From Candidatus Lokiarchaeum ossiferum (lineage in GTDB: Archaea; Asgardarchaeota; Lokiarchaeia; Sigyniarchaeales; Promethearchaeaceae), in assembly GCA_025839675.1 (NCBI GenBank), contig CP104013.1, positions 540,001 to 572,000 on the forward strand: a stretch of 32,000 nucleotides of DNA. Direction: 5' to 3'. Under the pieces are notes generated by a model that worked only from the letters and a program-made list of their open reading frames with translations, ran no database searches and had not been told where the DNA came from. Position 1 is the stretch's first letter. Every line of letters begins with the position of its first letter. The translations under genes were made by a program, and so were the position numbers. Below are positions 12,209-30,109 of this stretch, in pieces.

Positions 12209-12229
12209 AACTTTGAGAGGAAGGAAAAA

Positions 12230-12448: not shown

Positions 12449-12688
12449 GGTGGAGCTACGACATTTACAATCGAAATTCCTATAATGAATTCTCCAAACT
12501 CACAACAGGATTCTGAAAATCGTTGTATATGTTGAAGAATTGTAAAAAAATAACGCTTTAATATTATTTAGTTCATCTTTTCTTGAGATTTGTTCATTTA
12601 TTTATTGACTACGAAGAAAAATTGATTATCTTCTTTGATGAATGTCAAAAATCAAAATTTTTTTATATTTCATTGAAAAGAAGATATT

Positions 12689-14072: not shown

Positions 14073-16952
14073 GTGACTGCCAGACAGCGTCTTTGGCGGA
14101 TAGATCAAATCCATTTTGATGAAAACCAAGAATTCTATTATTACTCAGTAAGTAATGTTTCAGGGGTACCTTCTAATGAAGTACTCTTTCCTAGCATTGA
14201 ATCGATTAAAAAAAGTGAAATACCTCCTCCCGCAAAAGATAAATTAGGTTCTCCTCGATATCAACAACTCCTACTACAAGCACTCCGATTAGATTTAATT
14301 TATGGCACAACTTCTTTTATCAGCCTTCAAAATTCAAAAGTAATCCCCATTTCATATCAAATGGTTCCTGTTCTCATGGCGCTGAATATGAAAAAGGTGC
14401 GTTTACTTTTAGCCGATGATGTAGGTCTTGGTAAAACCGTAGAAACGGGACTTATTTTACAGGAATTATTAGGACGGAAACGAATTAATCGTGTGCTTTT
14501 TGTAACTCCGGCGAATCTTCGGGAGCAATGGCAAACTATTCTTCGTAATTTCTTTGGAATAGATGCCGTTATTATGTCTCGTCGTAATCGACGTCATCTG
14601 GAATCGGAATTATTAGTAGGAGGTAGTCCTTGGGGATACTACAATTTTGTGATTACATCTGTAGATTATGCCAAACAACTTGATGTACGCAGCGAAATAA
14701 TGCAATTTAATTGGGATATGGTAGTAATGGATGAAGCCCATAACATTATGATGCCACACGGAGGGGTAGATGATGTTGATAATAAAAACATTAAAAAAAG
14801 TTATTTATTTGCCCGTCAATTGACCGAAAAATATCCTCACCTTTTACTATTAACCGCGACTCCTCATAATGGCTATAAAGATTCATATACAAGCTTATTG
14901 AAGATGGTTAATCCCAATATTATTGAAGAGGTTGATACCGAAATTGAGATTGACAAAGATTTGGCAATTAACCATGTCTGCCAACGTCGAAGACATGATG
15001 TGGAACAATGGATCGGGGATCGCTATGAAAAAAGTCCATTTCCAGAACGCGATTCTGATGAGATTTTCATCACTCCTTCAGACCAATTCCACCATACTAT
15101 GGAAAAACTCTCTAAATTTGCGAATTATGTTATGAATTACGTAAATAAACTCACCACTGAAGATAATCAACGCAGTTATTGGACAATCTTACACTTTTTC
15201 AAACGTGCAATCAGTTCACCGGAAGCATTAATATGTTCTATTGATAATCGAAATGATGAAATAGATAAAAAATTAAATGAAAAACATCAAGCGATTGAAA
15301 ATTTAACACAGTTCCTTTCGATAGAAGAAGCCGGGCAATCAGTATTAGATGGTGCAGAAACCGATCGAATTTCGGAGGAAGAACGAGATATTCGAAACGA
15401 TCGAATTGTTTTAGCACAATCAATGGATTTATTATCCCAAGAAAAGGGTTTATTACTTGAGGTACAGGTAGAAGCGGAGAAATTAAAGAAAAAAGACAGA
15501 AAAGTGGATGAACTTATCAATGAAATTATTCCTAATTTATTAAAGAATTCCAAAAAAGTCATTCTATTCACCCGATATATCGACACGTTGAAATATATTC
15601 ACCAAAATCTCAAAGAAACCATAGATAGCGGATCGTTGCGATATAAAGGAATGGATCTCTTTTATGTGCATGGGCAACTCCCATCTCAAAAACGTATGGA
15701 AATTTATGACGATTTCTTAAAAAATCCTGCAGCGATTTTAATCTCCACGGATTGTATGGCAGAAGGGATTGATTTGCAATTTTCTGCCAATCAAATCATC
15801 AACTATGAATTGACCTGGAATCCGAACCGGCTTGAACAAAGGAATGGACGGGTGGATCGATTCGGACAACCGGAACCAAAGGTGTTCATCCGCACCTTGA
15901 TCATGAAAGACACGATTGAAATGGATATATTAGAATTACTTGTTAAAAAAGCTCAGAATATTAAAGAAGAATATGGATTTGTCCCCGGGTTTTTCGGAGA
16001 TCCAAAGGATATAATTGATCGCTTGACGAAAAGACGGAAAGAAAAACTAAAACCACAAGCAACTTTGGATAGCTATTTGAAATTAACTCCTAGAATAATG
16101 GATGATTTGGTCTCGACTTTCTACAATAAAGAAAATCTGGAAGAAATTCTGAAAGATTCATTTTACGGTCATAATAATATTGATTTACAAGAGATTGAAC
16201 ATCGGATGCAGATGAGTCAAGAAAAAATCGGTTCAAGCGCCACGATATTTGCATTCTTAAAATCTTCAGTGCAACTCTATAAAGGGAATCTAACTCAAGC
16301 TAAAGAAAACGAACATATTTTTGAGGTGCAATTACCACCCGAAATACTACATGATCTCAATGTAGAGGTGGAGGGCCCAATTCGGGTGACACAAAATATG
16401 AATCTTGGTGCTACACGAAAAGATGTTGATGCTTTGAGCTTAAAAAATGCTTTAATTGCTGGATTAATTGAAAAGGTAAAAAATGAAGCTTTTATTGAAG
16501 AAAAACAATTTTACGGTCGAACTGCAGCATTTACGTCTACACATGCCGAAACGGTAAAAGCAATATATCATCTGAAAATCCGGTATTATATAAACACTGA
16601 TCCACCGAGTATCACTGAAGAGATTACCACATTGGGTATAGATTTATTTTCTGAAGATATCTTAACCGAAAAGTCTATCAATCAAATAATCTCCGGTGAA
16701 ATGAATAATGCGGGGAAACCTGATGCATTTGTATTAAAACATATTGCCAAAGCATTAGAAAATACTGATCTGGAAATAAAATTTGAAGATCTTGCAAATC
16801 GACGAAAACAAGAATTGATTAATGAGCGTACTGATTTGATCCAACGATTACAGGAACAGGGTTTGACTGCAGATTTGCAGGGGATTTCAGATGTTAAAGT
16901 TGTGGGCACAGATCTTCTCACGATCGCTATAATCTATCCTCAAGGAGATTAA
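14073..16952 (+). CDS. drmD: SNF2-family helicase (DISARM DrmD-like)
   Basis: Motif I 'LLADDVGLGKTVETG' (nt 14425-14439). Motif II 'VVMDEAHN' (14730-14741). Motif III 'LLLTATPHNG'. Motif V 'STDCMAEGIDLQ'. Motif VI 'WNPNRLEQRNGRVDRFGQ' (~15838-15870). GTG 14073 is the first canonical start. The frame is open upstream to nt 14007 and encodes a plausible N-terminus ('SIPDFSIGEIVTARQRLWRI'), so the start is uncertain. Confidence 0.85.
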   Translation: MTARQRLWRIDQIHFDENQEFYYYSVSNVSGVPSNEVLFPSIESIKKSEIPPPAKDKLGSPRYQQLLLQALRLDLIYGTTSFISLQNSKVIPISYQMVPVLMALNMKKVRLLLADDVGLGKTVETGLILQELLGRKRINRVLFVTPANLREQWQTILRNFFGIDAVIMSRRNRRHLESELLVGGSPWGYYNFVITSVDYAKQLDVRSEIMQFNWDMVVMDEAHNIMMPHGGVDDVDNKNIKKSYLFARQLTEKYPHLLLLTATPHNGYKDSYTSLLKMVNPNIIEEVDTEIEIDKDLAINHVCQRRRHDVEQWIGDRYEKSPFPERDSDEIFITPSDQFHHTMEKLSKFANYVMNYVNKLTTEDNQRSYWTILHFFKRAISSPEALICSIDNRNDEIDKKLNEKHQAIENLTQFLSIEEAGQSVLDGAETDRISEEERDIRNDRIVLAQSMDLLSQEKGLLLEVQVEAEKLKKKDRKVDELINEIIPNLLKNSKKVILFTRYIDTLKYIHQNLKETIDSGSLRYKGMDLFYVHGQLPSQKRMEIYDDFLKNPAAILISTDCMAEGIDLQFSANQIINYELTWNPNRLEQRNGRVDRFGQPEPKVFIRTLIMKDTIEMDILELLVKKAQNIKEEYGFVPGFFGDPKDIIDRLTKRRKEKLKPQATLDSYLKLTPRIMDDLVSTFYNKENLEEILKDSFYGHNNIDLQEIEHRMQMSQEKIGSSATIFAFLKSSVQLYKGNLTQAKENEHIFEVQLPPEILHDLNVEVEGPIRVTQNMNLGATRKDVDALSLKNALIAGLIEKVKNEAFIEEKQFYGRTAAFTSTHAETVKAIYHLKIRYYINTDPPSITEEITTLGIDLFSEDILTEKSINQIISGEMNNAGKPDAFVLKHIAKALENTDLEIKFEDLANRRKQELINERTDLIQRLQEQGLTADLQGISDVKVVGTDLLTIAIIYPQGD
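16943..16947 (+). promoter_or_regulatory. Shine-Dalgarno AGGAG for the first methyltransferase gene
   Basis: AGGAG lies inside the last codons of the SNF2 gene, 11 nt before ATG 16959. Confidence 0.5.
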
Positions 16953-16958
16953 AGTTAG

Positions 16959-18803
16959 ATGGCATCACAAGCAAAATTATTACGAAATATTACCACTAAT
17001 GGAGGACTATTTACCGAAAATATTTTACTGAAATTACGGGATCGTCCCAATTCTAAGAATATTGGCAAAATAACTTATTTTTATTTTCCAGAAGAGATAG
17101 AAGAGATTCAAAAAACTGGAAATCCACCACAAACTCTCGATTCTCTTGAGATAAAGCAAAAACGGGAAAAGCTGAAATCCTTACAATCTTCTATTTTTAA
17201 TTGGGGACAACGTAAGTGGGAAGAAACATATCCTGATTTGGAATTAAATAAATTGGAAGATCCAGACATAGAAACAAAATGGTTGCTTCCTTTATTAGAA
17301 CAGATCGGTTATGAACTTGAGCCTTTTGACCGATCTTCTGATGATGGGACTGATACAGGGGTGTTAGGTGATTTTCAAATCAAATATCAAACAACAAATC
17401 CATCTATCCAATTGTTTTTTCATTTTGTTTGCCCTAATGATGATTTAGATAAAAAAATAAAAACAAATCCCAAACAACTTTCACATCATGATATTTGCCA
17501 GCAATATGTGAACTATCATCCAGATGTGAAATGGCTTATTCTTTCTAATGGTACTCAATTACGTCTCCTCTCTACATATTATTACTCATATTCTAAAGGT
17601 TATTTGGAGTTCAATCTAAAAGATATTTTTGGAGGAGATCTTCAGGAATTTTTAGTATTTTTTAATATATTGCATCCTTCTCGGTTTATAAAAATCGAAC
17701 CGGATAAACATTCACTTATTGAAGATTTTCAAGCAGAATCACAGGAAGAAGGTGTAAAAGTAGGAAATAATCTTCGAGATAATGTGCATAATGCAATCGA
17801 AACTCTAGGGAATCAGCTTATCCAACAAAATAACGAATTATATACAAATATTAAAAATGAAAAGATCAATTTACAAGAGTATTACGCCGAATTACTGCGA
17901 ATCATATACCGGATCATTTTCATTTTATATGCGGAGCAAAGAAATATGTTGCCCGGATCCGGAACGTTATATTTCAAAAATTTTTCCTTATCTTCCTTTC
18001 GGATGCTGGCAGAAAAACCAATTAAAAACGATTCCCAATCGGATTTATGGCAAAAACTTTTTGTTACTTTTCAACTAGTGAGAGATGGCAATAGTTTTAT
18101 GGGAATACCTTGTTTTAATGGAATCTTATTTGATAATACCAATTTGTCTATTTTATTTCCAGATGGTAAAGAAAAAGGTATTATATATTCAGTTTCAAAT
18201 GATATTACATTAGGGATCATCCGACTACTTACTACAGCCCAATTTGGAAACATTCGCCAACGCATCAATTTTATAGAAATTTCAGAGGAAGAAATTGGAG
18301 CTATTTATGAATCATTGCTTGAATATCGCCCAATATTTGATAAAAGAGGAAATTTTAATTTGGAATACGAATCTAATGAAAGGAAAGGTACCGGAACCTA
18401 TTATACTCCAAAAAATATAATTGATATCTTTATTAAAAATACGATAGAACCAAAAATTCGATTTATATTAGATGAACATGCTGGAAATCCACAGATACAG
18501 GAAAATGAAATAAGAAAATTAAAAATATGTGATCCTGCTTGTGGTAGTGGCACATTTCTTCTTTCAGTATTAGATTCTATGGGTGAACATTTAGCCAAAA
18601 TTCGTAGTCCAAATTCCTATCCAACTGAAATAGAATTAAGAAATGCACGACGTGAAATCTTACAACATTGCATTTATGGTGTCGATAAAAATCAACTTGC
18701 AGTGGAATTGTGTAAAATTTCTCTTTGGTTACGGGCATGTGTTAAGGATAAACCTTTGAATTTTCTCGATAATCATATTAAATGTGGAGATTCACTACTA
18801 GGT
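16959..18803 (+). repeat. Copy 1 of a ~1.85-kb diverged direct repeat (shared N-terminal half of the two methyltransferase genes)
   Basis: Aligns codon-for-codon with 20657-22503, from 'KLLRNITT.GGLFTENILL' to 'DNHIKCG.SL.G'. Long identical peptide runs are present (e.g. YYAELLRIIYRIIFILYAEQRNMLPGSGTLYFKNFSLSSFRM) despite many synonymous nucleotide differences. Confidence 0.85.
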
Positions 18804-20642
18804 ATTTTAGAAAAGAAAGAAAATTTAATGATTGAACCTACAAATTATAAAAATCTAAAGTGTAATCCTAATATCAAAAGGAAATTGATTCAACAATTAA
18901 AAAATGAGGTAAATTCTTTTAAAAAATCTAAAAATAAAATAGTACCTTTAACGAAATTCCTTGATTCTAATCAAATGGTTATATTCGACATAAAAAAATA
19001 TGAAAATATCAATAGTTTACCAGAAGATACAAAAGAAGATATTATTCTGAAAATGAGTAAATATAATCACTTACATGATGATCTTAATTTCAAAAAACTA
19101 AAACTAATATCAGATACGTGGATTTCGAGTTTTTTATGGTCAATTGATAAAAACATTAAGAGTATTGCAGATTTTTCTTATCCAAATAATATTTTGCTTG
19201 AAGAAATTAAATTAGGAAAAATATATAAGAGAAATAATTCTGAAGACACTTCTCAAATTAGTAAAATTCAAAAAATGGCAAAAAAAGAGAAGTTCTTTCA
19301 TTGGTATTTGGAATTTCCTGAAATTTTTAATAAACCTAACAAAGGCTTTGATTTTATTTTATCAAATCCACCATATGTCGAATCTCGTGGAATACCTGAC
19401 TATTATTGGAATTGGTTACGACTTCACTACAAGAGTTCATATAAAAAGTTTGATCTCTCGGTTGTTTTTCTCGAAAGGATCGTTCAGTTATTGAAACCTA
19501 ATGGAAAAGCAGCTATAATAACTTCAAATAAATGGTTAGTTGCAGATTATGGTTTGAAAATAAGAGAAATATATTTAAAAGAAACTAAAATTGAATCTAT
19601 TTATGACATCTCCCATTTAAATGTATTTTCTGAAGCCGATACTTATCCTATTATCATATTTGTTACTAAACCAGAATTAATTTCAAAGATTGAAGGAAAA
19701 GATACTTACTTATTCAAGCCTTCATCATTTAAAGAATTGTGGAATAATGATTATAAAAAAGAAAAATATGCGATCTCTCAAGGTTTTTTTGAAAGATTTC
19801 CTAATATTATATTTCCAACTACTATAGAACCTAAAAACATTATGTTATTAACCCACATTTGGAATTTACTTCCAAAATTTGCTTTTCTTCTTGGTGGACT
19901 AAATAGTCCATATGTTCTGAAAAAAGGAATACATACAGGCAATATAAAAGAAAAATTAATCTTAAAAAATCCATCTGTTATTCATGATTCGTTTAAGAAA
20001 TTAATTACAAGCCGAGAAAAAGTGGACAGATATCATTTTTCTTGGGAAGGATATTACGTTAATTATGATCCGAGTATTATTAAAAAGGAAAATGGAGAAT
20101 ATGGTAGCTTAAGAGAAAAATGGATATTTGAAAGTAATCCAAAAATTTTCATTAAATTATTTGGGAAGCGCATACAAGCGGCTTTAGATTCTGAAAAATA
20201 TTATGCTAATAATTCTATTATTATAGTTGTAAAAAACAATAATGAATCTAAAGAAAACTCAGATGAAATATTATCCATAAATAATGAATTTTATTATCTT
20301 ATAGGCATATTGAATTCTGATTTGATTTCAGTATTTTACAAAATAATATTTCATCATACTCATGTTCGAGGAGATTTTCTCCAATATTATATCAAAGATT
20401 TGGAAAATATTCCAATTATAAAGCCATCCACAGAAAATATTGAAACTGTTATTAAAATTGGAAAAATTGCAAAAAAGTTAATTAAATTATATATTACTGT
20501 AGAGATTAATAAAGATAAAATCCAAATCTTAGAAGATGAGTTGAATAATTTAATACATATTTTGTATAAGTTAGAACAATTAAATTTGGGTTCATCATGG
20601 AATGAATTAAAAAATCAATTCCTAGATTATATTGATTTTTAG
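16959..20642 (+). CDS. drmMI: N6-adenine DNA methyltransferase, Eco57I/type IIG-like, NPPY type (DISARM DrmMI-like), paralogue 1
   Basis: 1227 aa. SAM motif I 'KICDPACGSGTFLL' (nt 18531-18551). 'FFHWYLEFPEIF'. Catalytic motif IV 'ILSNPPYVESRG' (N-P-P-Y at 19365-19376). 'LLKPNGKAAIITSNKWL'. TaqI-C-like specificity signature 'YYLIGILNSDLISVFY'. The N-terminal ~610 aa are paralogous to the next ORF. Confidence 0.85.
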   Translation: MASQAKLLRNITTNGGLFTENILLKLRDRPNSKNIGKITYFYFPEEIEEIQKTGNPPQTLDSLEIKQKREKLKSLQSSIFNWGQRKWEETYPDLELNKLEDPDIETKWLLPLLEQIGYELEPFDRSSDDGTDTGVLGDFQIKYQTTNPSIQLFFHFVCPNDDLDKKIKTNPKQLSHHDICQQYVNYHPDVKWLILSNGTQLRLLSTYYYSYSKGYLEFNLKDIFGGDLQEFLVFFNILHPSRFIKIEPDKHSLIEDFQAESQEEGVKVGNNLRDNVHNAIETLGNQLIQQNNELYTNIKNEKINLQEYYAELLRIIYRIIFILYAEQRNMLPGSGTLYFKNFSLSSFRMLAEKPIKNDSQSDLWQKLFVTFQLVRDGNSFMGIPCFNGILFDNTNLSILFPDGKEKGIIYSVSNDITLGIIRLLTTAQFGNIRQRINFIEISEEEIGAIYESLLEYRPIFDKRGNFNLEYESNERKGTGTYYTPKNIIDIFIKNTIEPKIRFILDEHAGNPQIQENEIRKLKICDPACGSGTFLLSVLDSMGEHLAKIRSPNSYPTEIELRNARREILQHCIYGVDKNQLAVELCKISLWLRACVKDKPLNFLDNHIKCGDSLLGILEKKENLMIEPTNYKNLKCNPNIKRKLIQQLKNEVNSFKKSKNKIVPLTKFLDSNQMVIFDIKKYENINSLPEDTKEDIILKMSKYNHLHDDLNFKKLKLISDTWISSFLWSIDKNIKSIADFSYPNNILLEEIKLGKIYKRNNSEDTSQISKIQKMAKKEKFFHWYLEFPEIFNKPNKGFDFILSNPPYVESRGIPDYYWNWLRLHYKSSYKKFDLSVVFLERIVQLLKPNGKAAIITSNKWLVADYGLKIREIYLKETKIESIYDISHLNVFSEADTYPIIIFVTKPELISKIEGKDTYLFKPSSFKELWNNDYKKEKYAISQGFFERFPNIIFPTTIEPKNIMLLTHIWNLLPKFAFLLGGLNSPYVLKKGIHTGNIKEKLILKNPSVIHDSFKKLITSREKVDRYHFSWEGYYVNYDPSIIKKENGEYGSLREKWIFESNPKIFIKLFGKRIQAALDSEKYYANNSIIIVVKNNNESKENSDEILSINNEFYYLIGILNSDLISVFYKIIFHHTHVRGDFLQYYIKDLENIPIIKPSTENIETVIKIGKIAKKLIKLYITVEINKDKIQILEDELNNLIHILYKLEQLNLGSSWNELKNQFLDYIDF

Positions 20643-20645
20643 GAG
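20641..20645 (+). promoter_or_regulatory. Shine-Dalgarno AGGAG for the second methyltransferase gene
   Basis: AGGAG overlaps the TAG stop of paralogue 1 (20640-20642) and lies 11 nt before ATG 20657. Confidence 0.5.
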
Positions 20646-20656
20646 TTAACAAATCA

Positions 20657-22503
20657 ATGACATCAAACGCAAAATTATTACGGAATATAACCACCAGTGG
20701 GGGACTGTTTACAGAAAATATTTTATTGCGATTACGAGATCAACCCAATTCAAAGAATATCGGTAAAGCTACATATTTTTATTCAGTAAAAGAAATAGAA
20801 GAGATAAAAAATACTGGAAAATCACCACAAACTCTTGACTCTCTAGGCATTAAACAAAGACAGGAAAGATTAAATTCCCTTAGAACCACAATTTTCGATT
20901 GGGCACAGCGGAAATGGGAAGAAATTTTTCCAGATATGAAACTACATAAAGTAATAAAATCCGATATTGAAAAGAAATGGTTACTTCCCTTATTTGAACA
21001 GATTGGTTATGAACTTGAACCATTTAACCAATCATCAAGTGAAGAATTCGATACCGAGGTTCTTGGCGATTTTCATATTAAGTATCAACCAAAAATCCCC
21101 AAAGTGCAAGTTTATTTCCATTTTGTTTCTCCCTATGATGATCTCGATCAAAAAGTAAAATCAAATCCAAAACAACTCTCCCATCATGAAATTTGTCAAC
21201 AATTTGTGAACTATCATCCCAATGTGAAATGGTTAATCCTATCAAATGGCACACAACTGCGGCTCCTCTCAACATACTACTATTCTTATTCTAAAGGTTA
21301 TGTAGAGTTTAATTTACAAGATATTTTTGGTGGGGATCTGCAAGAATTCAAAGTAATGTTCAATATGATACATCCTTCTAGGTTTGTCGGTATCGAATCA
21401 GAGAAAAAATTGCTTATTGAAGATTTCCAAGCAGAATCAAAAGAAGAAGGAGTAAAGGTGGGAGATAATCTCCGGGATAATGTACATAATGCAATCGAAA
21501 TGCTCGGTAATAAGCTAATTCAACAGAATGATGAGCTTTATAAGCAAACTAAACAGGAAAAGATCGATTTACAAAAATACTATGCCGAATTATTACGGAT
21601 CATCTACCGGATCATTTTCATTTTATATGCAGAACAAAGAAATATGCTGCCTGGATCTGGAACTCTATATTTCAAGAATTTTTCCTTATCTTCATTTCGG
21701 ATGATGGCAGAAAAACCAATTAAGAATGATTCCCAATCAGACTTATGGCAAAAACTCTTCTTAACTTTTCAGCTTGTTAAAAATGGAAATAAAAAAATGG
21801 GGGTGCCATGCTTTAATGGAAGTCTCTTCGATAATACAAATTTATCAATTTTATTTCCTAATGGTGGAAAAGAAGGTATAAAATACATTATCTCAAATGA
21901 TATCTTATTAAGAATCATCCGGTTACTCACAACTGCTCAAATAGGCAATATTCTCCAAAGAATTAATTTTATTGAAATATCTGAAGAAGAAATTGGAGCT
22001 ATATATGAATCCTTACTTGACTATTTTCCTGTTTTTAGCAAAAGGGATCAATTTAAACTCCCCTATCAAACCACTGAGCGAAAGGGTACGGGTTCTTATT
22101 ATACTCCCAAATCTTTAATTGATATTTTATTGAAAACAACGTTAAAACCATTGATAGACGATACACTTGCAAATATCGGAATTGATCCTTTTGACCAAGA
22201 AAAAGCGATATTAAGAATCAAAATTTGCGATCCTGCTTGTGGTGGAGGTACCTTTTTACTATCTGCTTTAGATTTTATTGGAGAAAAATTAGCAAAAATT
22301 CGTAAAACAGATTCAAGTCCAACAGAGGATGACTTACGACATGCTCGTCGCGATGTCTTACAAAATTGCATCTATGGTGTTGATAAAAATTCCCTTGCGG
22401 TTGAATTATGTAAAATATCTCTTTGGTTACGAGCATGTGTTAAGGATAAACCGTTGAATTATCTCGATAATCATATAAAATGCGGGAATTCCTTAATTGG
22501 ATT
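20657..22503 (+). repeat. Copy 2 of the ~1.85-kb diverged direct repeat
   Basis: See copy 1 (16959-18803). Same orientation, with starts 3.7 kb apart. Confidence 0.85.
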
Positions 22504-24757
22504 TGGAAAAAACCCTGAAAGTTTATTAATTTCAGATAAAAATTTTAAGGCTTTGAAAGGAAATAAACAAACAGGAATTGAATCTGAAAATAAGAAATTA
22601 TGGAATGAAATTAAAAAACAAGTTCAGGATGAATTAAAAAATCTAAAGAAAACAAAAGCAAAACCTGGAACTTTGACAAAATTTCTCCCTGGACAAGAAC
22701 TAAAGTTGGATATTAAAAAATTTCAAGAAATCAGTAATATGACTGAAAATTCAATTGAAGAAATAAATCTGAAAAAAAAAAAATATACTGAATGTTTTAA
22801 CCGAGAGATCTATAAATCTCTAAAATATTATGCAGATGCATGGACGGCCAGTTTTTTTTGGCCATTAGAAGAGAAAAATGTTAGATTTATTGATTATAAA
22901 TATCCTAATAATACTTTATTAAATGATCTGAAAAATGGACGTATTATTAGCAAAAGTCAAAAAATATTAGAGAATATTTCTGAAATTTCTAAGCAATATC
23001 AATTTTTCCATTGGTATTTAGAATTTCCTGAAGTTTTTGATAAAAAAAAGCAAGGATTTGATTTAATTTTAGGAAACCCACCATGGGATGTTATTGAATT
23101 CAAAGAAAATGAATTTTTTATTGGAAAAGATTTGGAAATAACTCAAGCAGGAAATCAATCTAAACGCAGAGAATTGATTAAATCTCGCAAAAATACTAAT
23201 CATTCTTTGTGGAAAACATATAAGCAAAATTATAATCAATTATTGAAAGAAAAACACTTTTATTCTCAGTCTAATTTTTACTTTTACACTGCTAAAGGAA
23301 AAATGAATTTATATCCACTTTTTACTGAAAAATTTAGCAATTTACTAACAAAACAAGGAAGACTTGGTTATATTGTACCTTCAAAACTCATTACAAATTA
23401 TTTTATGCAAGATTTTTTTAACAAATTAGTCAATGAGAAGAAAATAATCTCTCTTTTTGATTTTAATAATAAAGAAAATCTTTTTAGAGGCATAAGTTCT
23501 CAGCAGAAATTTTGCCTGATTTCTTTAGGAAATGTGTCGAAGGAATCTAAATTTATCCCAATGGCTTTTGAATTGGAAAAAATTGAAGAAATAAATCCTG
23601 TCTTAAATTTAATGGAATATTATAATTTAGAAGATATTTCAAATCAATTAAATCTTGATTCAAAACTTTTATTATTAGAGAGTAATGATTTTCAAACTTT
23701 TAATCCGAATACAAAAACATGTCCAATTTTCACTAACAATTTCACTTACAAAATTTTTAAGAAAGCATATAAGTATCCAATTTTAATTTTAAGAGATGAA
23801 TCAAATAATGAATTAAAAAATTGTTGTAATATCGAAATATCAACTATTTTTAATGCTGCTTCTGATTCAAATCTATTTATTGAGAAAAAAGATTTAGAAA
23901 AATTAAAAGTTGAATCAGAAAATAAATTATCCGGTGGAATATGGAAAGATGATAAAAATAAATATCTACCACTATACGCTGGAAAAATGGTATGGCAATA
24001 TGATCATAGATATCAAGGAATAATTAAAACAAAAGCAGCACAAAGAAATGAAAAATCTTTCGCAATTTCTGAGGAACAGAAGAAAAATATTCAATTTTAC
24101 AACATACCTGCATATTGGATCAAAGAAGAAGATTTTATGGCAAATCTTCCCAAAAAATGGAATAAAAAGTGGTTTTTTGCATTTAGAGATATAACAGGAT
24201 CAAAAAACGAGAGATCATTAGTCTGTTCGATAATTCCATTTTATCCAAGCAATCATACACTTCCAATTGTATACCAAAAGGAAGATAATGAACATAATGC
24301 GGAAAATCTTTGTATACTCATCGCTAATTTTAATACTCTTATTATGGATTACATCGCCCGTCAAAAGATATCCAGTCAACATATGAGTTTTTATGTAGTT
24401 GAACAATTACCTGTCATTCCTTTTGAAAAATATCCTACAAATATAAAAGCCCTGATAGTGAACAAAATCTTAAAATTATCTTATAATTCTCTAGATTTAG
24501 AAGAATTTGCCAAAGATTTAAATTTTACAGAAAATCCCTTTATTTGGAATGAAGAAATTAGACTTAAAATAAAATGTGAGATTGATGCAATTTATGCATT
24601 GTTATATAAAATTGAGCGAGATGAATTGGAAAAGATTATTGAAACATTTGATGTTTTAGAGAAAAAGGAATTAGATAAATATGGTTCTTTTAAAACTAAA
24701 AGTTTAATCTTAGATAATTTTGATAAATTTGCACAAAAATTGGAGTTGTTTGAATAA
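20657..24757 (+). CDS. drmMI: N6-adenine DNA methyltransferase, type IIG-like, NPPW type (DISARM DrmMI-like), paralogue 2 with a different catalytic/target-recognition half
   Basis: 1366 aa. Motif I 'KICDPACGGGTFLL' (nt 22229-22249). 'FFHWYLEFPEVF'. Motif IV 'ILGNPPWDVIEF' (N-P-P-W at 23075-23086). 'MNLYPLFTEKFSNLLTKQGRLGYIVPSKL'. The C-terminal ~650 aa ('ERSLVCSIIP', 'FYVVEQLPVIPF', 'CEIDAIYALLYKIERDELEKI') are unrelated to paralogue 1. The TAA stop abuts the next ATG (TAAATG at 24755-24760). Confidence 0.85.
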   Translation: MTSNAKLLRNITTSGGLFTENILLRLRDQPNSKNIGKATYFYSVKEIEEIKNTGKSPQTLDSLGIKQRQERLNSLRTTIFDWAQRKWEEIFPDMKLHKVIKSDIEKKWLLPLFEQIGYELEPFNQSSSEEFDTEVLGDFHIKYQPKIPKVQVYFHFVSPYDDLDQKVKSNPKQLSHHEICQQFVNYHPNVKWLILSNGTQLRLLSTYYYSYSKGYVEFNLQDIFGGDLQEFKVMFNMIHPSRFVGIESEKKLLIEDFQAESKEEGVKVGDNLRDNVHNAIEMLGNKLIQQNDELYKQTKQEKIDLQKYYAELLRIIYRIIFILYAEQRNMLPGSGTLYFKNFSLSSFRMMAEKPIKNDSQSDLWQKLFLTFQLVKNGNKKMGVPCFNGSLFDNTNLSILFPNGGKEGIKYIISNDILLRIIRLLTTAQIGNILQRINFIEISEEEIGAIYESLLDYFPVFSKRDQFKLPYQTTERKGTGSYYTPKSLIDILLKTTLKPLIDDTLANIGIDPFDQEKAILRIKICDPACGGGTFLLSALDFIGEKLAKIRKTDSSPTEDDLRHARRDVLQNCIYGVDKNSLAVELCKISLWLRACVKDKPLNYLDNHIKCGNSLIGFGKNPESLLISDKNFKALKGNKQTGIESENKKLWNEIKKQVQDELKNLKKTKAKPGTLTKFLPGQELKLDIKKFQEISNMTENSIEEINLKKKKYTECFNREIYKSLKYYADAWTASFFWPLEEKNVRFIDYKYPNNTLLNDLKNGRIISKSQKILENISEISKQYQFFHWYLEFPEVFDKKKQGFDLILGNPPWDVIEFKENEFFIGKDLEITQAGNQSKRRELIKSRKNTNHSLWKTYKQNYNQLLKEKHFYSQSNFYFYTAKGKMNLYPLFTEKFSNLLTKQGRLGYIVPSKLITNYFMQDFFNKLVNEKKIISLFDFNNKENLFRGISSQQKFCLISLGNVSKESKFIPMAFELEKIEEINPVLNLMEYYNLEDISNQLNLDSKLLLLESNDFQTFNPNTKTCPIFTNNFTYKIFKKAYKYPILILRDESNNELKNCCNIEISTIFNAASDSNLFIEKKDLEKLKVESENKLSGGIWKDDKNKYLPLYAGKMVWQYDHRYQGIIKTKAAQRNEKSFAISEEQKKNIQFYNIPAYWIKEEDFMANLPKKWNKKWFFAFRDITGSKNERSLVCSIIPFYPSNHTLPIVYQKEDNEHNAENLCILIANFNTLIMDYIARQKISSQHMSFYVVEQLPVIPFEKYPTNIKALIVNKILKLSYNSLDLEEFAKDLNFTENPFIWNEEIRLKIKCEIDAIYALLYKIERDELEKIIETFDVLEKKELDKYGSFKTKSLILDNFDKFAQKLELFE
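22772..22783 (+). repeat. A12 homopolymer (four AAA Lys codons) inside methyltransferase paralogue 2, upstream of the NPPW motif
   Basis: Read directly: ...aatctg aaaaaaaaaaaa tatact..., encoding 'NLKKKKYTE'. This is the longest mononucleotide run I noticed inside a coding region in the window. Confidence 0.9.
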
Positions 24758-27700
24758 ATGCCAGAACAATTAAAAAGACAAAAACCACAAAACATTTTTT
24801 TAATGGCCGATCGTCTACAAGAGACGTATGAACAATTTGTCCGTTCATTCCAATATTTTCAAAATGAGAAAATTCAAACGTGGGTGGACGATCAGATGGA
24901 AAAGCACGATCTACTTTTCCGAGATCCGTATATTGAATTGAATTTCCAATTTGAAAATGGAATTCCACTTGCAGAGATGGTCACCCAAAACTATATGCAT
25001 GCAAGAATCCCAGAAATCTTCAAAATTTCTCCCTACAAACACCAATCTCAAGCAATTACTCGGATTCTCAAAGAAAACCAAAATATTATCGTGTCCACGG
25101 GAACGGGCTCCGGAAAAAGCTTGTGTTATTGGATTCCTATTATCAATACATGTCTGGAAATGAAGCAGAAAGGATTAGACGGGATTAAAGCAATTGTTAT
25201 TTTCCCGATGAATGCCTTAGCCAATTCTCAATACAATGCATTGGTGGATACAATCCAAGATTATACGGATCTCAAAGTTGGGCGATATACAGGAGATACA
25301 GCATACTCACGGAAAGAAGGGGAGAAATTACTAGAAGAACGCGCCACACGAGAACCTTACAAATGTGAATATCTCTCCCGGCAAGAGATGCAAGATAACC
25401 CCCCCGATATTCTTATTACGAATTATGTAATGTTGGATCTCTTACTTATGCGGCATGATGATAAAAAACTCTTTCCCGGAAAACATGAAGGTCACCTCAA
25501 ATACCTCGTCTTAGATGAAATTCACACCTATAATGGAAATACGGGATCGGATGTAGCTTGTCTCGTTCGCCGATTGAAGGAAAAAACCAATACCATTGGA
25601 AAACTCCGCTGTATTGGCACTAGTGCAACCATTCAGGATAATAAAAAAGACACCGATCCAAATCAACCTTCTTCGATTATCGAATTTGCAGAAAAAATAT
25701 TTGGAGAACCCTTCACCAACAATAGTTTAATTACAGCAACGCACATCAAATCAGATGTTACATTCGATAAAATCGTGAAACTCCCAAAAACCATTAAAAT
25801 TGATACTGAGGAACTGAATGCCTTTGATGGAACCCTCCCTACAACGATTCCAATCGCAAATAAATTACTCGCGAGCCCTCTCACTTCAGAGGAAGTGGGC
25901 GATGAATTTCAATTAGGTGTTAAATTTGAATATCATGAAACGATTTTATTCCTCCAAGATCAACTCAAAGAAATCGCTCAATCACTTAAAGATCTTGCCA
26001 CCACCTACCGATCCAAATTACGACCGGGAGAATCCGAAGCAAAATGTTTACAAGAGTTAAAAGCCGCATTTTTAGTGGGAACCGTCGGAAAAATTACCAA
26101 AAACGAAGAAAAACGCCCATTAATTGTGCCAAAACTGCATCTCTTCTTCTCCCGAGGGCACGATATTCACTCCAGTCTCACCCAACTCGGCCCTTATCCC
26201 ACGATAGATGGGAATGTCATTTGCCACGAAACCGAATACAAGACCTACCCGATGTATTTCTGTCGGAATTGTGGGCATGAATTTTATAGTGTGATCATAT
26301 CCGAAGATAATATGGTCTATCCGCGCAATTTAGATGAAGAACAACCCGGAAAACTTTTCTATCTCACCCCTATCACTGATGCGAATAATAATTGGGAGGT
26401 TCCCGAACAATGGATCAATACAAAAGGCGATGTAAAGAAGAGTTACCAACCTGCGCAACCCACACGAACATTATACTGTCCGAAACATAACGTGATCGAA
26501 AGCACGTGCGGATGTCCTAAAGTATTGGAAGTCTGGCAGATTGCCTATCCGATCCAACTCTGTCCTTCATGTAATATTTTTTATACCAAACGCAAAGGTG
26601 AATATGGAAAACTCTTTTCGTTCAACTCCACCGGACGGAGTTCTTCCACCGATGTCTTAACGGCTAAGCTCTTGAGAAATTTATCACGAGACCAAAAAAA
26701 GTTAATTGTTTTTACCGATAACCGTCAAGATACGTCATTGCAAGCAGAACATTTGAATGAATTTCAACGACGCTTGAATTTTCGCCAGATCATGCTCGGA
26801 GTTCTCCAAAAAATTCACACACATGGCGATCGGATCACGGATCTCGAAATTGGGAATTATATCTTCGCATATCTTTCCGAAACAGGAAAACTCCCCGAGT
26901 ACAGTATCGAAGAAGCGGATGAGTTTAGTTCGGCTCCCCCGCCCATTATTGAATATAAAAGTTTTCTCACATATTTGGCAGTATCCGATATTATGCAGTC
27001 CAATTATTTCCTCGACCTCAATCTGGATAAATTGGGAATTTTAAAAATCGAGTACGATATGTTGCATAAACTCGCCGGACACTCTCAATTAACCAATCAT
27101 TTTATCTTTAAACGATATAACCCCACTCAGAATTATGATTATATGCGAGGATTGCTGGATATATTCAGGTGGAATGGGGCAATTGCAAACGGGAATTTTA
27201 GCAAATCGGGGAGTAAATTCAAACAATGGGAACGAAAAATTAAGGCAGACCTCCTCTTCGATATTAACAAAAATCATTTTACCAATTTTGGCTATACATT
27301 TGAGATACCGAAAAATCCCAAGACAAATAAACGCAGTCGGGTGCTCTATGATAACTACGCAGTATCATTGAAAAGTTTGACTGGTAATAACTCCGTAATT
27401 CTTAATTGGACCCAAAAATTCTTCAAAGTGGAAAAAGAGGATGCGGAAAAAATTATCATTGAAATGATTCAAATTCTCGAAAAAACCAAATTTATCCAAA
27501 AGATCTGGGCGGATCGTCCGAAAACCGATTTTTACCAAATCGCAGAAGGCAAAATCCTTTTCAAATTAAACGCAGAAGAGCAATTTCAGCAATGTCCCAA
27601 ATGCCATAAAGTGTTTTATTTTGATGAATTTTCCGAGTGTGCGTGGCGGAATTGTCCGACCCTCAAATCTCATATTGTTGATCATGACAATTATTACTAC

Positions 27701-30109
27701 AAACTCTACCAAACAGAAAATGATCCCTATTCGGAAATCCATGCGAAAGAGCATAGTGCTCAAGTGGATGGGAAAATGCGGGAAGAGTTTGAAGATAATT
27801 TCAAAGCAACAAAGAAAGAAAGCTTAAACGTATTGGTGTGCACCCCCACCATGGAATTGGGGATAGATATCGGTGACCTGTCCGCGATTATTATGCGGAA
27901 TGTACCCCCCGATCCCAGTCGCTATGCCCAACGAGCCGGAAGGGCAGGAAGAAAAAATCAACCCTCAATTATTGTGGTATTCTGTGGGACCGGATATGCC
28001 AAAGGACCGCATGATCAATACTTTTATCAGCGCCCGGATCTCATAGTTTCTGGAAAGATCGAACCACCTAATTTTCTCTTGGATAATCGGAAACTGATTC
28101 AACGGCATTTGCATTCGATGATCTTTGAACATATGGATACTAAAATTTCGCAAAAATTAGGGGCGAACTGGGATCTGCAGAATGATAACACTCAACCACC
28201 ATTTCCGATGCATGAAGGTTTGAAAAACCAAATCGATCGGGAAATCCTCCGTAAAAAAGCAGTCTTACTTTCTCAAATCCAATTGGCCTTTACAGCAGAA
28301 ATTGGGAAATTTGATAAATGGTTCAATGAAGATTTTATCCTTAGTATTATCTCCCAGTTTCGATCCCGGCTCGATAAAATTTTCGATGAATTTCGGGATG
28401 ATTACTACATACTCTTAGATGAACTTGATTTTCTGCATTCAAAGACGCGAACGGGAGATACTTCCTATAAGAAAGATCGCAAATATTCCGCGCTAAAATT
28501 TAAGTTGAAAAAGATTACCGAAGGTAATCTACCGTATACAACCTTTTCCTATCTCTCCAATTATGGGTTTATTCCGAACTATGGATTCTCGAGTTCTGCA
28601 TCCATGGTGTCCATGTATAACCTGAGTAAAGATAAAACTTTTGATTTATGGCGTTCTTCTGTCATTGCCATCCGGGAATATGCTCCTTATAATCAGATTT
28701 ATTTCCTCGGCAATAAATACCAAGTGACTAAAGCAGAGGTGAGAACCACTAAAGGCAAAATTGAAGTGCAGGATATGTATATCTGCCCGTATTGTGAAGA
28801 GATCTTGATGGATACACCCCAGCAAAAAGTAAAGTGTCTTTCGAATTGTCTGAGTTGTCAAAACCCAATTGATAATGGACAATTCAAGTATGCCTTCGAG
28901 TTTCCGCACATGTCCTCAATCAATAAAGAACGAATTACCTGTGATGAAGAAGCACGGATGGTCAAAGGCTATGAAGTTTCCATGAACTACAAATGGACCA
29001 ATAAAGCGAAAGAATATCAAATTATCGAAACTAAGAATGATAACGCATTAGTGGAATTGTCCTATGAGCATAATGGGAAAATTTTCATTGTGAATAAGGG
29101 CGTGGTGAAAAGTGATAAAAACAACCCGAATGAATCTAATTTAGAACCCTTTTATTATTGTAGTGCCTGTGGGGCGTGGTTACATGAAACACAAGTGAAT
29201 ACTCACTTGGATAATTGTGAGCGAAATGGCACAAGTGAAAATCTCTATAATGATGGATATTGGCTCTTTGTCGAAGGGAATCATGATGTGTTAGAATTTA
29301 AGGTACCATTCATAGGACCAGTACATCCTTCTATTAAAGAAATTCTGACATTCTACACCACAATGAAAGAGACTATCACCCAATCAATCTTGATAACGTT
29401 CAATTTAGGGGAAAATGAAATCATGCGTTTCCTCCGACCTCAGCAAGGTACGGACAATTTTTCTATTGTAATCTTTGAGAAAGAAGAAGGTGGCACAGGA
29501 ATATTGAAATCGCTGCTGAATCCCGAAATTACACGGTTTGACCAGTTTATTAAAAATCTGAAACGAATTCTTCATGTGGAAAAATTAGTTCCTTATCAAG
29601 AAACTCGGGATGCGTGCCATAAAGCATGCTATAACTGTCTCTTAGGGTTCCGCAATCAATTTGAGCACGAGTATTTGGACCGGAAGAGTATCCTCCCAAT
29701 AATCACTCGGCTAGAACAAATCACTTTAGAAGCAAAGAAGAATGAATCAGAGAATGCTGAAGATCATTTCACTCAACTCTTGGACCAATGTGATTCAGAT
29801 CTCGAAAAACTGGTTTTAAAGGAAATTCAAAAACAAAACTTGCATTTTCCCACCGAAGCACAGAAAACCTATTTCCAAGGTGATACTCCCATAGTAACTG
29901 CCGATTTCTTCTATACACCCGAAACCTATATCTTTGTCGATGGCCCTCCTCATGAACAAGATCATGTGGAACTTGATGATAAAAACAAACGTGGAATATT
30001 AGAAAGTCATGGTAAAATCGTGATTGAAATGGATTTTTGTGATGGGCTATATAAACACCAGCCAGAATTAATTAAAAAAGAAGTGCAAAAGTTGAAACAA
30101 TATTTATAA
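24758..30109 (+). CDS. drmA: DEAD/DEAH-box helicase + DUF1998 (MrfA-type Zn-binding) + C-terminal Vsr/DUF559-like endonuclease; DISARM DrmA-DrmB fusion-like (1783 aa)
   Basis: Motif I 'VSTGTGSGKSLCY' (nt ~25097-25120). Motif II 'LVLDEIHTY' (25514-25525). Motif III 'GTSATI'. Motif V 'VCTPTMELGIDIGDL'. Motif VI 'RYAQRAGRAGR' (~27929-27952). Zn-ribbon-like CxxC clusters lie between motifs III and V ('FCRNCGHEF', 'LCPSCNIFY', 'CPKCHKVFYF..C..NCP'). DUF1998-type clusters: 'CPYCEE...CLSNCLSC' (from nt 28784) and 'ACHKACYNCLLGFRNQFEHEYLDR' (~29615-29690). C-terminus 'ADFFYTPETYIFVDGPPHEQDHVELDDKNKRGILESHGKIVIEM' (nt ~29900-30035) fits the DUF559/Vsr-like pattern aDF....iE/fVDG..H......D..R...L...G..V. 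Confidence 0.85.
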   Translation: MPEQLKRQKPQNIFLMADRLQETYEQFVRSFQYFQNEKIQTWVDDQMEKHDLLFRDPYIELNFQFENGIPLAEMVTQNYMHARIPEIFKISPYKHQSQAITRILKENQNIIVSTGTGSGKSLCYWIPIINTCLEMKQKGLDGIKAIVIFPMNALANSQYNALVDTIQDYTDLKVGRYTGDTAYSRKEGEKLLEERATREPYKCEYLSRQEMQDNPPDILITNYVMLDLLLMRHDDKKLFPGKHEGHLKYLVLDEIHTYNGNTGSDVACLVRRLKEKTNTIGKLRCIGTSATIQDNKKDTDPNQPSSIIEFAEKIFGEPFTNNSLITATHIKSDVTFDKIVKLPKTIKIDTEELNAFDGTLPTTIPIANKLLASPLTSEEVGDEFQLGVKFEYHETILFLQDQLKEIAQSLKDLATTYRSKLRPGESEAKCLQELKAAFLVGTVGKITKNEEKRPLIVPKLHLFFSRGHDIHSSLTQLGPYPTIDGNVICHETEYKTYPMYFCRNCGHEFYSVIISEDNMVYPRNLDEEQPGKLFYLTPITDANNNWEVPEQWINTKGDVKKSYQPAQPTRTLYCPKHNVIESTCGCPKVLEVWQIAYPIQLCPSCNIFYTKRKGEYGKLFSFNSTGRSSSTDVLTAKLLRNLSRDQKKLIVFTDNRQDTSLQAEHLNEFQRRLNFRQIMLGVLQKIHTHGDRITDLEIGNYIFAYLSETGKLPEYSIEEADEFSSAPPPIIEYKSFLTYLAVSDIMQSNYFLDLNLDKLGILKIEYDMLHKLAGHSQLTNHFIFKRYNPTQNYDYMRGLLDIFRWNGAIANGNFSKSGSKFKQWERKIKADLLFDINKNHFTNFGYTFEIPKNPKTNKRSRVLYDNYAVSLKSLTGNNSVILNWTQKFFKVEKEDAEKIIIEMIQILEKTKFIQKIWADRPKTDFYQIAEGKILFKLNAEEQFQQCPKCHKVFYFDEFSECAWRNCPTLKSHIVDHDNYYYKLYQTENDPYSEIHAKEHSAQVDGKMREEFEDNFKATKKESLNVLVCTPTMELGIDIGDLSAIIMRNVPPDPSRYAQRAGRAGRKNQPSIIVVFCGTGYAKGPHDQYFYQRPDLIVSGKIEPPNFLLDNRKLIQRHLHSMIFEHMDTKISQKLGANWDLQNDNTQPPFPMHEGLKNQIDREILRKKAVLLSQIQLAFTAEIGKFDKWFNEDFILSIISQFRSRLDKIFDEFRDDYYILLDELDFLHSKTRTGDTSYKKDRKYSALKFKLKKITEGNLPYTTFSYLSNYGFIPNYGFSSSASMVSMYNLSKDKTFDLWRSSVIAIREYAPYNQIYFLGNKYQVTKAEVRTTKGKIEVQDMYICPYCEEILMDTPQQKVKCLSNCLSCQNPIDNGQFKYAFEFPHMSSINKERITCDEEARMVKGYEVSMNYKWTNKAKEYQIIETKNDNALVELSYEHNGKIFIVNKGVVKSDKNNPNESNLEPFYYCSACGAWLHETQVNTHLDNCERNGTSENLYNDGYWLFVEGNHDVLEFKVPFIGPVHPSIKEILTFYTTMKETITQSILITFNLGENEIMRFLRPQQGTDNFSIVIFEKEEGGTGILKSLLNPEITRFDQFIKNLKRILHVEKLVPYQETRDACHKACYNCLLGFRNQFEHEYLDRKSILPIITRLEQITLEAKKNESENAEDHFTQLLDQCDSDLEKLVLKEIQKQNLHFPTEAQKTYFQGDTPIVTADFFYTPETYIFVDGPPHEQDHVELDDKNKRGILESHGKIVIEMDFCDGLYKHQPELIKKEVQKLKQYL

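Follow-up and report, generated by a model that had tools for sequence, protein, structure and literature searches.

Does the 1783-aa polypeptide encoded by a single gene of Candidatus Lokiarchaeum ossiferum represent a new hybrid of defence proteins, or a kind that is already known? The initial annotation of the 32,000-nt stretch of DNA analysed here (the window) had read it, within a DISARM framework, as a helicase, a DUF1998 protein and a Vsr/DUF559-like endonuclease joined in one chain. An exact-sequence look-up returned UYP44196.1 (Ca. Lokiarchaeum ossiferum), 100% identical to the ORF product. This very accession stands in Table S1 of the 2025 ARMADA report (Bell et al. 2025, bioRxiv 10.1101/2025.09.15.676423 / PMC12458937) as "ARMADA Type I helicase, Candidatus Lokiarchaeum ossiferum", and the protein is therefore of an already catalogued kind, the ARMADA Type I ArmC, with family and accession identical. 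Its place in the Type I clade is taken from the look-up and the authors' Table S1. The GenBank product name is 'ATP-dependent RNA helicase SrmB', and because this deposit name coexists with 2023-era profiles that return DISARM and Druantia pieces, the locus is easily mistaken for a new hybrid. The main value of the analysis is hence a correction: a deposited SrmB gene belongs to the catalogued ARMADA Type I system.

We consider it very likely that an ARMADA Type I antiviral operon occupies 14073-30109, includes the large ORF and works broadly as proposed below. Its genes are as follows:

14073..16952, + strand: opening gene of the operon, a 959-aa ArmA-like helicase of SNF2/RapA/BrxHII type (Pfam SNF2-rel_dom and Helicase_C)
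16959..20642, + strand: MT1, an extra ArmB-like N6-adenine methyltransferase paralogue, 1227 aa (Pfam Eco57I, N6_Mtase and TaqI_C)
20657..24757, + strand: MT2, the ArmB, a PglX-like N6-adenine methyltransferase, 1366 aa (PADLOC DrmMI, 288 bits)
24758..30109, + strand: ArmC, a YprA-family helicase-nuclease, 1783 aa (UYP44196.1), whose start codon abuts the armB stop

These genes follow one another directly on one strand, the gaps between them measuring 0-14 nt. An alignment-based scan of genome contigs gave 80 genome loci (the same scan with the single ArmC protein as query found nothing), and the trio of SNF2 gene, methyltransferase gene and ArmC homologue was present in most of them. Three Asgard relatives, among them Promethearchaeum syntrophicum, have the A-B-C order too, and both Asgard genomes of Table S1 that we checked (P. 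syntrophicum and L. ossiferum) carry the three-gene system. This matches the ArmA-ArmB-ArmC order reported for many archaea, in which the Type I partners ArmA and ArmB are a BrxHII/RapA-like helicase and a PglX-like methyltransferase, respectively (PMC12458937). The published Type I ArmC combines a YprA-like helicase, Cys-rich and helical RecA2 inserts, an OB-CON-DUF1998 part and one predicted-active C-terminal Vsr domain (PMC12458937). Here we found the helicase-DUF1998 fusion, a single Vsr domain and the ArmA/ArmB partners, with no ArmD. The locus departs from the Type I description in having ArmB-type genes as a tandem pair and not singly, in a zinc module in which two Cys are replaced (S473, T492), and in an armC compositionally unlike its neighbours.

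The large ORF is real. It begins with ATG and, according to the ORF list and its translation, stays open throughout 5.3 kb, a length that at 31-39% G+C far exceeds what chance would produce. We aligned 113 full-length homologues of similar length end to end; they come from archaea and bacteria, with overall identities of 35-72%. The possibility that a frameshift or an assembly error had fused two genes was dismissed on this alignment and on the source, a 6.03-Mb contig. The architecture recurs in more than 100 homologues, 1720-1810 aa long, so the fusion is not an artefact, and the claim that helicase, DUF1998 and Vsr/DUF559-like domain reside in one genuine polypeptide stands. The parts of ArmC are:

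24758..25648, + strand: aa 1-297, N-terminal region and RecA1 (Pfam DEAD, aa 94-297; invariant columns)
25649..26617, + strand: aa 298-620, first inserted block (AF2 model, pLDDT 84.8; Cys conservation)
26618..26827, + strand: aa 621-690, first part of RecA2 with motif IV (near-invariant columns; borders approximate and inferred)
26828..27727, + strand: aa 691-990, second inserted block, helical/winged-helix-like with a zinc ribbon at its end (AF2 model)
27728..28117, + strand: aa 991-1120, remainder of RecA2 with motifs V and VI (Pfam Helicase_C, aa 993-1066; invariant columns)
28538..29692, + strand: aa about 1261-1645, OB-CON-DUF1998 'canopy' (weak MZB match; zinc sites; OB and CON from the literature)
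29747..30106, + strand: aa 1664-1783, predicted Vsr/DUF559-like PD-(D/E)xK nuclease domain (AF2, Foldseek, profiles, conservation)

ArmC is a YprA/MrfA-family SF2 helicase, with sequence similarity to the MrfA/YprA structure 6znp (E 2e-22). Pfam matched DEAD (E 5e-26) and Helicase_C (E 6e-14), and the helicase motifs are near-invariant across the 113 full-length homologues: Walker A (G115-T-G-S-G-K-S121), DEIH (253-256) and TSAT (288-291) in RecA1, then motif V (T1029-PTMELGIDIG) and motif VI (Q1058-RAGRAGR1065). A conserved RecA2 segment contains the motif IV region (about aa 647-667, KKLIVFTDNRQDT), in which K648, F652, D654, R656 and Q657 are near-invariant. About 700 aa separate motifs III and V. 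The initial annotation had described them as one very large insertion holding three CxxC clusters; the three pairs are real (C502/C505, C602/C605 and C946/C949, each in 113/113 homologues), but since the conserved segment with motif IV sits midway, the inserted sequence forms two blocks (approximately aa 298-620 and 690-990) and not one.

The first block comprises an all-helical domain (about 306-443), which occupies the 'BrxA-like' position of PMC12458937, after which comes a module rich in beta structure and in Cys (about 445-620), with C489, C502/C505, C574, C584 and C602/C605. The zinc ribbon of the second block (C946/C949/C961/C966) has its Cys in 111-113 of the 113 homologues. A model of aa 295-995 (m97d1e86628e8, pLDDT 84.8) predicted the helical domain, the beta-rich Cys module and the helical/winged-helix-like block with its zinc ribbon, in the expected order. 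Searched against the PDB with Foldseek, this 701-residue model gave nothing better than E 0.98, with weak MarR/Fur/PadR-type matches and no significant match to BrxA or MarR structures; 9tu7 and 9wae, two large helicases that we take to be DruE structures, were absent from its matches, possibly being newer than the searched library. The labels BrxA-like, beta-barrel zinc module and MarR-like come from PMC12458937.

The canopy follows in the same ORF. In ArmC itself DUF1998/MZB is a sub-threshold Pfam match (E 1.4e-3, aa 1543-1628), and PF09369 (DUF1998) was recorded, among the matches listed, in 104 of 120 homologues. The DUF1998 site H1606, C1620, C1624 and C1627 (His-Cys3) is invariant (113/113), as are two further canopy zinc sites, C1343/C1346/C1364/C1367 and C1468/C1471/H1483/C1487. 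The assignment of OB and CON in ArmC rests on PMC12458937, according to which a helicase core fused to OB-CON-DUF1998 is the norm of the YprA family and the split found in DISARM is the exception.

ArmC stops directly after one Vsr domain. The tail is predicted to be a single Vsr/DUF559-type PD-(D/E)xK domain with its putative catalytic residues intact, as the initial annotation had suspected from its last residues. An AF2 model (meff1d1738779, pLDDT 85.3) adopts a Vsr-like PD-(D/E)xK alpha/beta fold whose best Foldseek match was 3r3p, the Vsr-like homing endonuclease I-Bth0305I (prob 1.0, TM 0.68, E only 9e-3). A profile of the tail also matched 3r3p in the PDB (E 0.002), as well as 3hrl. Among 48 homologous tails, Pfam DUF559 was found in 36 (best 1e-6), MTES_1575 in 25 and Vsr in 2. 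The query's own tail, taken as the last 115 aa or as a 134-aa tail, matched no Pfam nuclease family, so that the link needed homologues, profile and structure model. Aligned by hhalign with E. coli Vsr, the tail profile reached a probability of 6% and E 0.006, a pairing of residues that is plausible yet not significant. The proposed conservation check also favoured a nuclease: the putative catalytic residues E1683, D1716, H1732 and D1741 occur in 113/113 homologues and D1728 in 112/113, with K1744 and R1745 also conserved. The string on which the domain had been recognised, ADFFYTPETY...KIVIEM, spans aa 1715-1758 (nt 29900-30031). ArmC has the same predicted alpha/beta core as the Vsr/DUF559/I-Bth0305I group (PDB 3r3p, 3hrl; Pfam PF03852, PF04480, PF18741), and its tail shows the DUF559-typical pattern 'DF...(V/I)DG..H...D..KR...G(Y)RV'. 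It differs from E. coli Vsr, whose Cys/His zinc site (THGCFWHHHHC region) gives way to VDGPPHEQDH in ArmC, and it is tethered to a translocase, whereas Vsr is a mismatch-specific nickase.

The names returned by older profiles give the two obvious competing systems. If this were a DISARM variant, DrmA, DrmB and a substitute nuclease would have been fused into one protein, and with PADLOC the upstream genes indeed scored highest on DrmD (344 bits, against 255 bits for BrxHII) and DrmMI (288-304 bits); the mBio paper, moreover, likens ArmC to a DrmAB fusion. These names are merely the nearest labels, as PADLOC v2 (2023) is older than ARMADA. NCBIfam DISARM_DrmD gave the SNF2 gene 379 bits, below its cut-off of 610, and DISARM_DrmAL gave ArmC 24.6 bits with a cut-off of 999. 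ArmC is much nearer DruE than DrmA in PADLOC (DruE1 385 bits vs DrmA 63 bits), and the DrmA match covers only the Helicase_C stretch (aa 1004-1098), while DISARM DrmA has EVE-like and trigger-loop N-terminal parts. Class 1 DISARM (DrmD, DrmMI, DrmA, DrmB, DrmC) shares with this locus the SNF2 and N6-adenine methyltransferase partners, the YprA-family helicase and DUF1998, but keeps helicase and DUF1998 in separate genes and its nuclease in a separate PLD protein. Helicase and DUF1998 share one ORF in ArmC and in the >100 homologues, as the family norm would have it, and no PLD/DrmC gene was found among the scanned window ORFs of at least 100 aa. The DISARM framing was therefore abandoned, and a variant of that system seems to us very unlikely. 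In favour of a Druantia system with the ORF as DruE, the top PADLOC matches were DruE1 (E 3e-115), DruE3 (5.5e-105) and DruE2, and the best PDB sequence matches were the large helicases 9tu7 (E 1e-51) and 9wae. The best score on DruE1 agrees with the ARMADA report, which places the ARMADA helicases nearest to the Druantia ones (PMC12458937). DruE (10.64898/2026.05.13.724313) and ArmC have in common an MrfA-like core, RecA2 insertions, zinc motifs, DUF1998, OB and a tethered C-terminal nuclease. Against this, PADLOC found none of DruA-D, DruF, DruG, DruM and DruH among ten window proteins, and the DruE1 profile alignment ends at aa 1694, short of the nuclease core. The DruE III nuclease is of PLD type and acts with the exonuclease DruH, with no methyltransferase or SNF2 partner, and types I/II reportedly have an inactivated Vsr domain, while the residues are intact here. 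The partners in this locus are an SNF2 helicase and PglX-like methyltransferases, and the ArmA/ArmB neighbourhood is consistent across loci, which leaves a Druantia assignment highly improbable.

Two further readings concern what the protein does. As a housekeeping enzyme, ArmC would be an RNA helicase SrmB, as GenBank labels it, or a DNA-repair helicase like MrfA, to which the 6znp similarity would point. NCBIfam SrmB, however, scored 41.8 bits with a cut-off of 507, ArmC is about 4x the length of that model (441 positions), and the operon contains methyltransferases and has defence-island-like neighbours (NERD-NTPase, FRG-UDG/PDC-S15, ArdC-like); we give this reading next to no weight. Alternatively, the Vsr-like domain could be silent, serving as a DNA-binding, mismatch/modification-sensing or dimerisation module, with any destruction of DNA left to another factor. 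There are precedents, since Vsr domains are reported as inactivated in DruE of Druantia I/II and extra inactive ones occur in ARMADA II ArmC (PMC12458937); given the former, a Vsr fold alone is no proof of catalysis. The published ARMADA mutants affect only Walker and methyltransferase motifs, with none in the nuclease of ArmC, and the nearest solved structure, I-Bth0305I, differs at several aligned residues. On the other hand, the five acidic/His positions persist in 112-113 of 113 archaeal and bacterial homologues at 35-72% identity, the operon has no second conserved nuclease gene (80 loci, three Asgard relatives), and the authors predict the Vsr domain of ARMADA I ArmC to be active (PMC12458937). 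A silent domain is accordingly an unlikely reading, and we favour a tethered, active nuclease in an ARMADA Type I operon.

By analogy with relatives, self-marking, substrate choice, polarity and nuclease activity of this system can be pictured as follows. ArmB would methylate adenines of the host DNA and so provide a mark of self; ArmC, with the help of the SNF2 translocase ArmA, would load on single-stranded or junction DNA of the invader; ArmC would translocate 3'-5' with ATP, as MrfA and DruE do; and the tethered Vsr-type nuclease would nick or degrade the DNA that ArmC threads. Immunity would then be direct and non-abortive, like that measured in E. coli for ARMADA Type II. The initial annotation had argued that a covalently attached effector nuclease would alter the sensing-to-cleavage logic of the system. 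This is already in the literature, because a covalent nuclease is established experimentally for the related DruE, a helicase-coupled nuclease resembling the 3'-5' helicase MrfA for which ATP-driven DNA degradation has been demonstrated (10.64898/2026.05.13.724313). DruE also forms an autoinhibited dimer. Tethering a nuclease covalently to a translocase is hence a concept already established for DruE, the sister protein of ArmC.

Type II is the only ARMADA type with experimentally proven defence, in E. coli; this defence is non-abortive and depends on ArmA-D as well as on the Walker and NPPW motifs (PMC12458937, PMC13463889). ArmC is essential in EHEC (mBio paper). The E. coli system has homologous ArmA/ArmB/ArmC roles and the gene order seen here (PMC12458937, PMC13463889), but adds ArmD, in which a GajB-like UvrD helicase is joined by a RelE-like domain; inactive EEP and Vsr domains are also frequent additions to its ArmC. 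Neither ArmD nor such added domains occur here. Downstream of armC, Pfam, PADLOC and NCBIfam revealed no ArmD-type UvrD/RelE gene, and Type II is reported absent from archaea (PMC12458937).

A local oddity is the second methyltransferase. MT1 and MT2 are 66% identical over aa 1-806 and unrelated thereafter, the divergence beginning exactly at the NPPY/NPPW catalytic motif. Both keep their SAM-binding and catalytic motifs (DPACGSG and NPPY in MT1, DPACGGG and NPPW in MT2). The unrelated C-terminal half of MT1 includes a TaqI_C specificity domain, and from its profile matches this half was identified as a TaqI_C/PglX-type module. Compared with the methyltransferases of related loci, the C-terminal part of MT2 shows 27-43% identity and that of MT1 15-20%, and MT2 has full-length tblastn coverage in these loci. 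MT2 is, on these comparisons, the orthologue of the single methyltransferase of other ARMADA loci, and no counterpart of MT1 was found in the 80 genome loci or the three Asgard relatives. If both were active, one ArmC would be licensed by two methylation specificities, a local feature beyond what the available portions of the ARMADA paper describe; we regard this as possible but rather doubtful. With its duplicated methyltransferase, the locus is a natural experiment for studying the coupling between self-marking specificity and ArmC. The composition of armC is foreign-looking, with a GC3 of 0.39 vs 0.20 in its neighbours (about twofold), and, taken with the two ArmB types, this would point to ARMADA operons exchanging cassettes in a modular way. 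The window contains no tRNA genes as possible marks of an integration site.

Beyond armC lie a 301-aa HSDR_N-like protein and then a 243-aa protein with no matches. The HSDR_N-like gene (30344-31249) was considered as a member of the system and excluded, since tblastn found no counterpart of it in the 80 loci and nothing similar follows armC in the three Asgard relatives. Nearby, the NERD-NTPase, FRG-UDG/PDC-S15 and ArdC-like genes give the region the look of a defence island.

We confirmed that the helicase, DUF1998 and Vsr/DUF559-like domains ascribed to ArmC by the initial annotation lie in a single polypeptide, on the basis of its ORF, Pfam matches, alignment and a structure model. Pfam matches DEAD/ResIII over aa 94-297 and Helicase_C over aa 993-1066. 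Conservation was read from an alignment of 113 full-length homologues (a 35-sequence version was also made), in which the classical SF2 motifs listed here are almost invariant.

24758..30109, + strand: armC ORF, ATG start, 1783 aa
ArmC G115-TGSGKS121: Walker A
ArmC aa 253-256: DEIH
ArmC aa 288-291: TSAT
ArmC ~aa 648-667: motif IV region
ArmC T1029-PTMELGIDIG: motif V
ArmC Q1058-RAGRAGR1065: motif VI

DUF1998 (Pfam MZB) gave a weak match at aa 1543-1628 (E 1.4e-3), PF09369 was recorded for 104 of 120 homologues among the matches listed, and the site formed by H1606, C1620, C1624 and C1627 is invariant (113/113). In the public record (UYP44196.1 / WP_457918475.1) ArmC is misannotated as 'ATP-dependent RNA helicase SrmB'; it reaches 41.8 bits with the NCBIfam SrmB model, whose cut-off is 507. 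A frameshift or assembly artefact behind the fusion is excluded by more than 100 homologues of similar size (1720-1810 aa, 35-72% identity) that align end to end and come from Asgard archaea, Methanothrix, haloarchaea, Bathyarchaeota, Salinibacter and many other bacteria. An identical protein is encoded on a 6.03-Mb Candidatus Lokiarchaeum ossiferum contig, and a scan of species-representative genomes yielded 586 confirmed relatives.

The string from which a nuclease had been proposed lies at aa 1715-1758. Pfam found no family match for the ArmC tail alone; among 48 diverse homologous tails, DUF559 was matched in 36 (best E 1e-6), REase_MTES_1575 in 25 and Vsr in two. Against solved structures, the tail profile matches the Vsr-like homing endonuclease I-Bth0305I (3r3p, E 0.002) and also the 'endonuclease-like protein' 3hrl. 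Both chains of 3r3p are the two best Foldseek PDB matches (probability 1.0, E 9e-3; target-normalised TM 0.67-0.68) of an AlphaFold2 model of aa 1650-1783 with a mean pLDDT of 85.3, and lower, non-significant matches include the PD-(D/E)xK nucleases TnsA, EcoT38I, VRR-NUC and XisH. Direct comparison of the profile with E. coli Vsr is non-significant (probability 6%); in that alignment D1716 stands opposite the Asp of the Vsr 'PDF' and FVDG opposite FTHG. E1683, D1716, H1732 and D1741 are conserved in all 113 homologues, D1728 and R1745 in 112, and K1744 in 109. The nuclease call therefore stands on both counts, since the tail models as Vsr-like and its acidic and histidine residues are kept in 112-113 of 113 homologues. 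Catalysis by this domain is a prediction.

Three CxxC pairs had been noted between motifs III and V, and all are present and invariant (C502/C505, C602/C605, C946/C949). The stretch of ~700 aa described there as one very large insertion does exist, but it is two insertions, split by a conserved RecA2 segment bearing motif IV. A model of aa 295-995 (pLDDT 84.8), together with conservation for the cysteines, gave the following order.

ArmC ~aa 306-443: all-helical domain
next: beta-rich domain with C489, C502/C505, C574, C584 and C602/C605
next: poorly modelled stretch, the RecA2 strand with motif IV
next: helical/winged-helix-like block
last: zinc ribbon C946/C949/C961/C966

Foldseek found no PDB match to this model better than E 0.98, and many of the weak matches are MarR/Fur/PadR-type regulators. 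The modelled folds are compatible with the BrxA-like domain, beta-barrel zinc module and MarR-like domain published as inserted around RecA2 of ArmC (PMC12458937). Positions 473 (26174-26176) and 492 (26231-26233) of ArmC hold Ser and Thr, as in two close relatives (P0002 and P0011), instead of the Cys present in 108-109 of the 113 homologues; the beta-rich insert has probably lost one of its zinc sites.

The initial annotation saw in ArmC a re-engineered DISARM, and this frame is wrong. With the 2023 PADLOC profiles ArmC scores as DruE (DruE1 385 bits, DruE3 351 bits) over DrmA (63 bits, a weak match to the Helicase_C region only), and the NCBIfam DrmA model reaches 24.6 bits, with a cut-off of 999. 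Neither a PLD gene nor a Druantia partner was detected among the scanned window proteins (Pfam, PADLOC). Helicase and DUF1998 are fused in ArmC, whereas DISARM encodes them as two genes, a split described as peculiar to DISARM and not the family norm (PMC12458937). The domain assignments themselves were right. Three genes on the same strand precede armC, with gaps of 0-14 nt.

14073-16952, + strand: SNF2/RapA-type helicase (ArmA); DrmD 344 bits, BrxHII 255 bits
16959-20642, + strand: PglX/DrmMI-like N6-adenine methyltransferase (MT1)
20657-24757, + strand: second PglX/DrmMI-like N6-adenine methyltransferase (MT2, ArmB)

This is the gene combination by which Bell et al. 2025 define ARMADA: a BrxHII/RapA-like helicase (ArmA), a PglX-like methyltransferase (ArmB), and an ArmC with a fused OB-CON-DUF1998 region and a C-terminal 'predicted active Vsr-type nuclease' (PMC12458937). 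Type I is described there as ordered ArmC-ArmA-ArmB, reversed in many archaea, and Type II, with ArmD added, as absent from archaea. The window operon likewise carries ArmA, ArmB-type and ArmC genes in the archaeal A-B-C order, and its ArmC is an already known, catalogued ARMADA Type I ArmC.

We compared the window proteins by tblastn with 80 loci carrying ArmC homologues. ArmA-like and methyltransferase genes adjoin the homologue in most of those long enough to judge, ordered C-A-B in most bacteria and A-B-C in the archaeal loci and some Bacteroidota. Three Asgard relatives (a Helarchaeota contig, Promethearchaeum syntrophicum CP042905.2 and a Promethearchaeota contig) encode ArmA of 990-1011 aa, a single ArmB of 1333-1459 aa and ArmC of 1766-1802 aa, with no conserved gene found downstream of ArmC. 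Besides L. ossiferum, Table S1 of PMC12458937 names one Asgard genome, P. syntrophicum MK-D1, in which ArmA-ArmB-ArmC follow the same order (L083 2588-15409) and ArmC is 35% identical; in another Asgard locus, L084, RAMP (type III CRISPR-like) genes cluster beside the ARMADA genes. Just downstream of armC, a 301-aa ORF (30344-31249) carries the PD-(D/E)xK-type domain found at the N terminus of type I restriction R subunits (HSDR_N-like). Since relatives do not keep this ORF next to ArmC, it is not part of the system and probably represents a separate gene or a fragment.

ARMADA Type II is reported to shield E. coli from many phages without cell death and to depend on each of its four genes, on the Walker motifs in both ArmA and ArmC and on the ArmB NPPW motif (PMC12458937). 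ArmC is essential in EHEC. DruE of Druantia III, an ATP-driven nuclease with an MrfA-like helicase core, loses DNA degradation and defence in both helicase and nuclease mutants (10.64898/2026.05.13.724313). By analogy with these relatives, Type I ARMADA may work as follows: ArmB would mark host DNA, ArmC with ArmA would engage the invader's single-stranded or junction DNA, and ArmC would translocate 3'-5', the threaded DNA being cut by its tethered predicted Vsr-type domain.

The upstream half of the window (592-13537) resembles a defence or mobile island.

592-4212: ResIII-like 1206-aa protein
4217-6163: FRG + UDG-like protein, PADLOC PDC-S15 match
6229-7293, - strand: ArdC_N + MPTase-PolyVal (metallopeptidase) gene
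7517-12208: NERD + P-loop/STAND-like 1563-aa protein
12689-13537: CBS-domain protein

Related loci, the three Asgard ones included, have a single ArmB and the window has two. MT1 and MT2 share 66% identity over aa 1-806, beyond which they are unrelated, the similarity breaking at the catalytic NPPY/NPPW motif; both retain SAM and catalytic motifs. MT2 is the orthologue of ArmB in other loci (the canonical ArmB), and MT1 carries a specificity module of the TaqI_C type at its C-terminal end. ArmB in the window is duplicated and chimeric. Composition suggests that armC has a history different from that of its operon partners, because its GC3 is 0.386 (GC 0.388) compared to 0.196 and 0.211 in the methyltransferase genes and 0.289 in armA; the remaining window genes have 0.17-0.28. 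Over the final 400 nt of armC, GC3 drops to 0.23.
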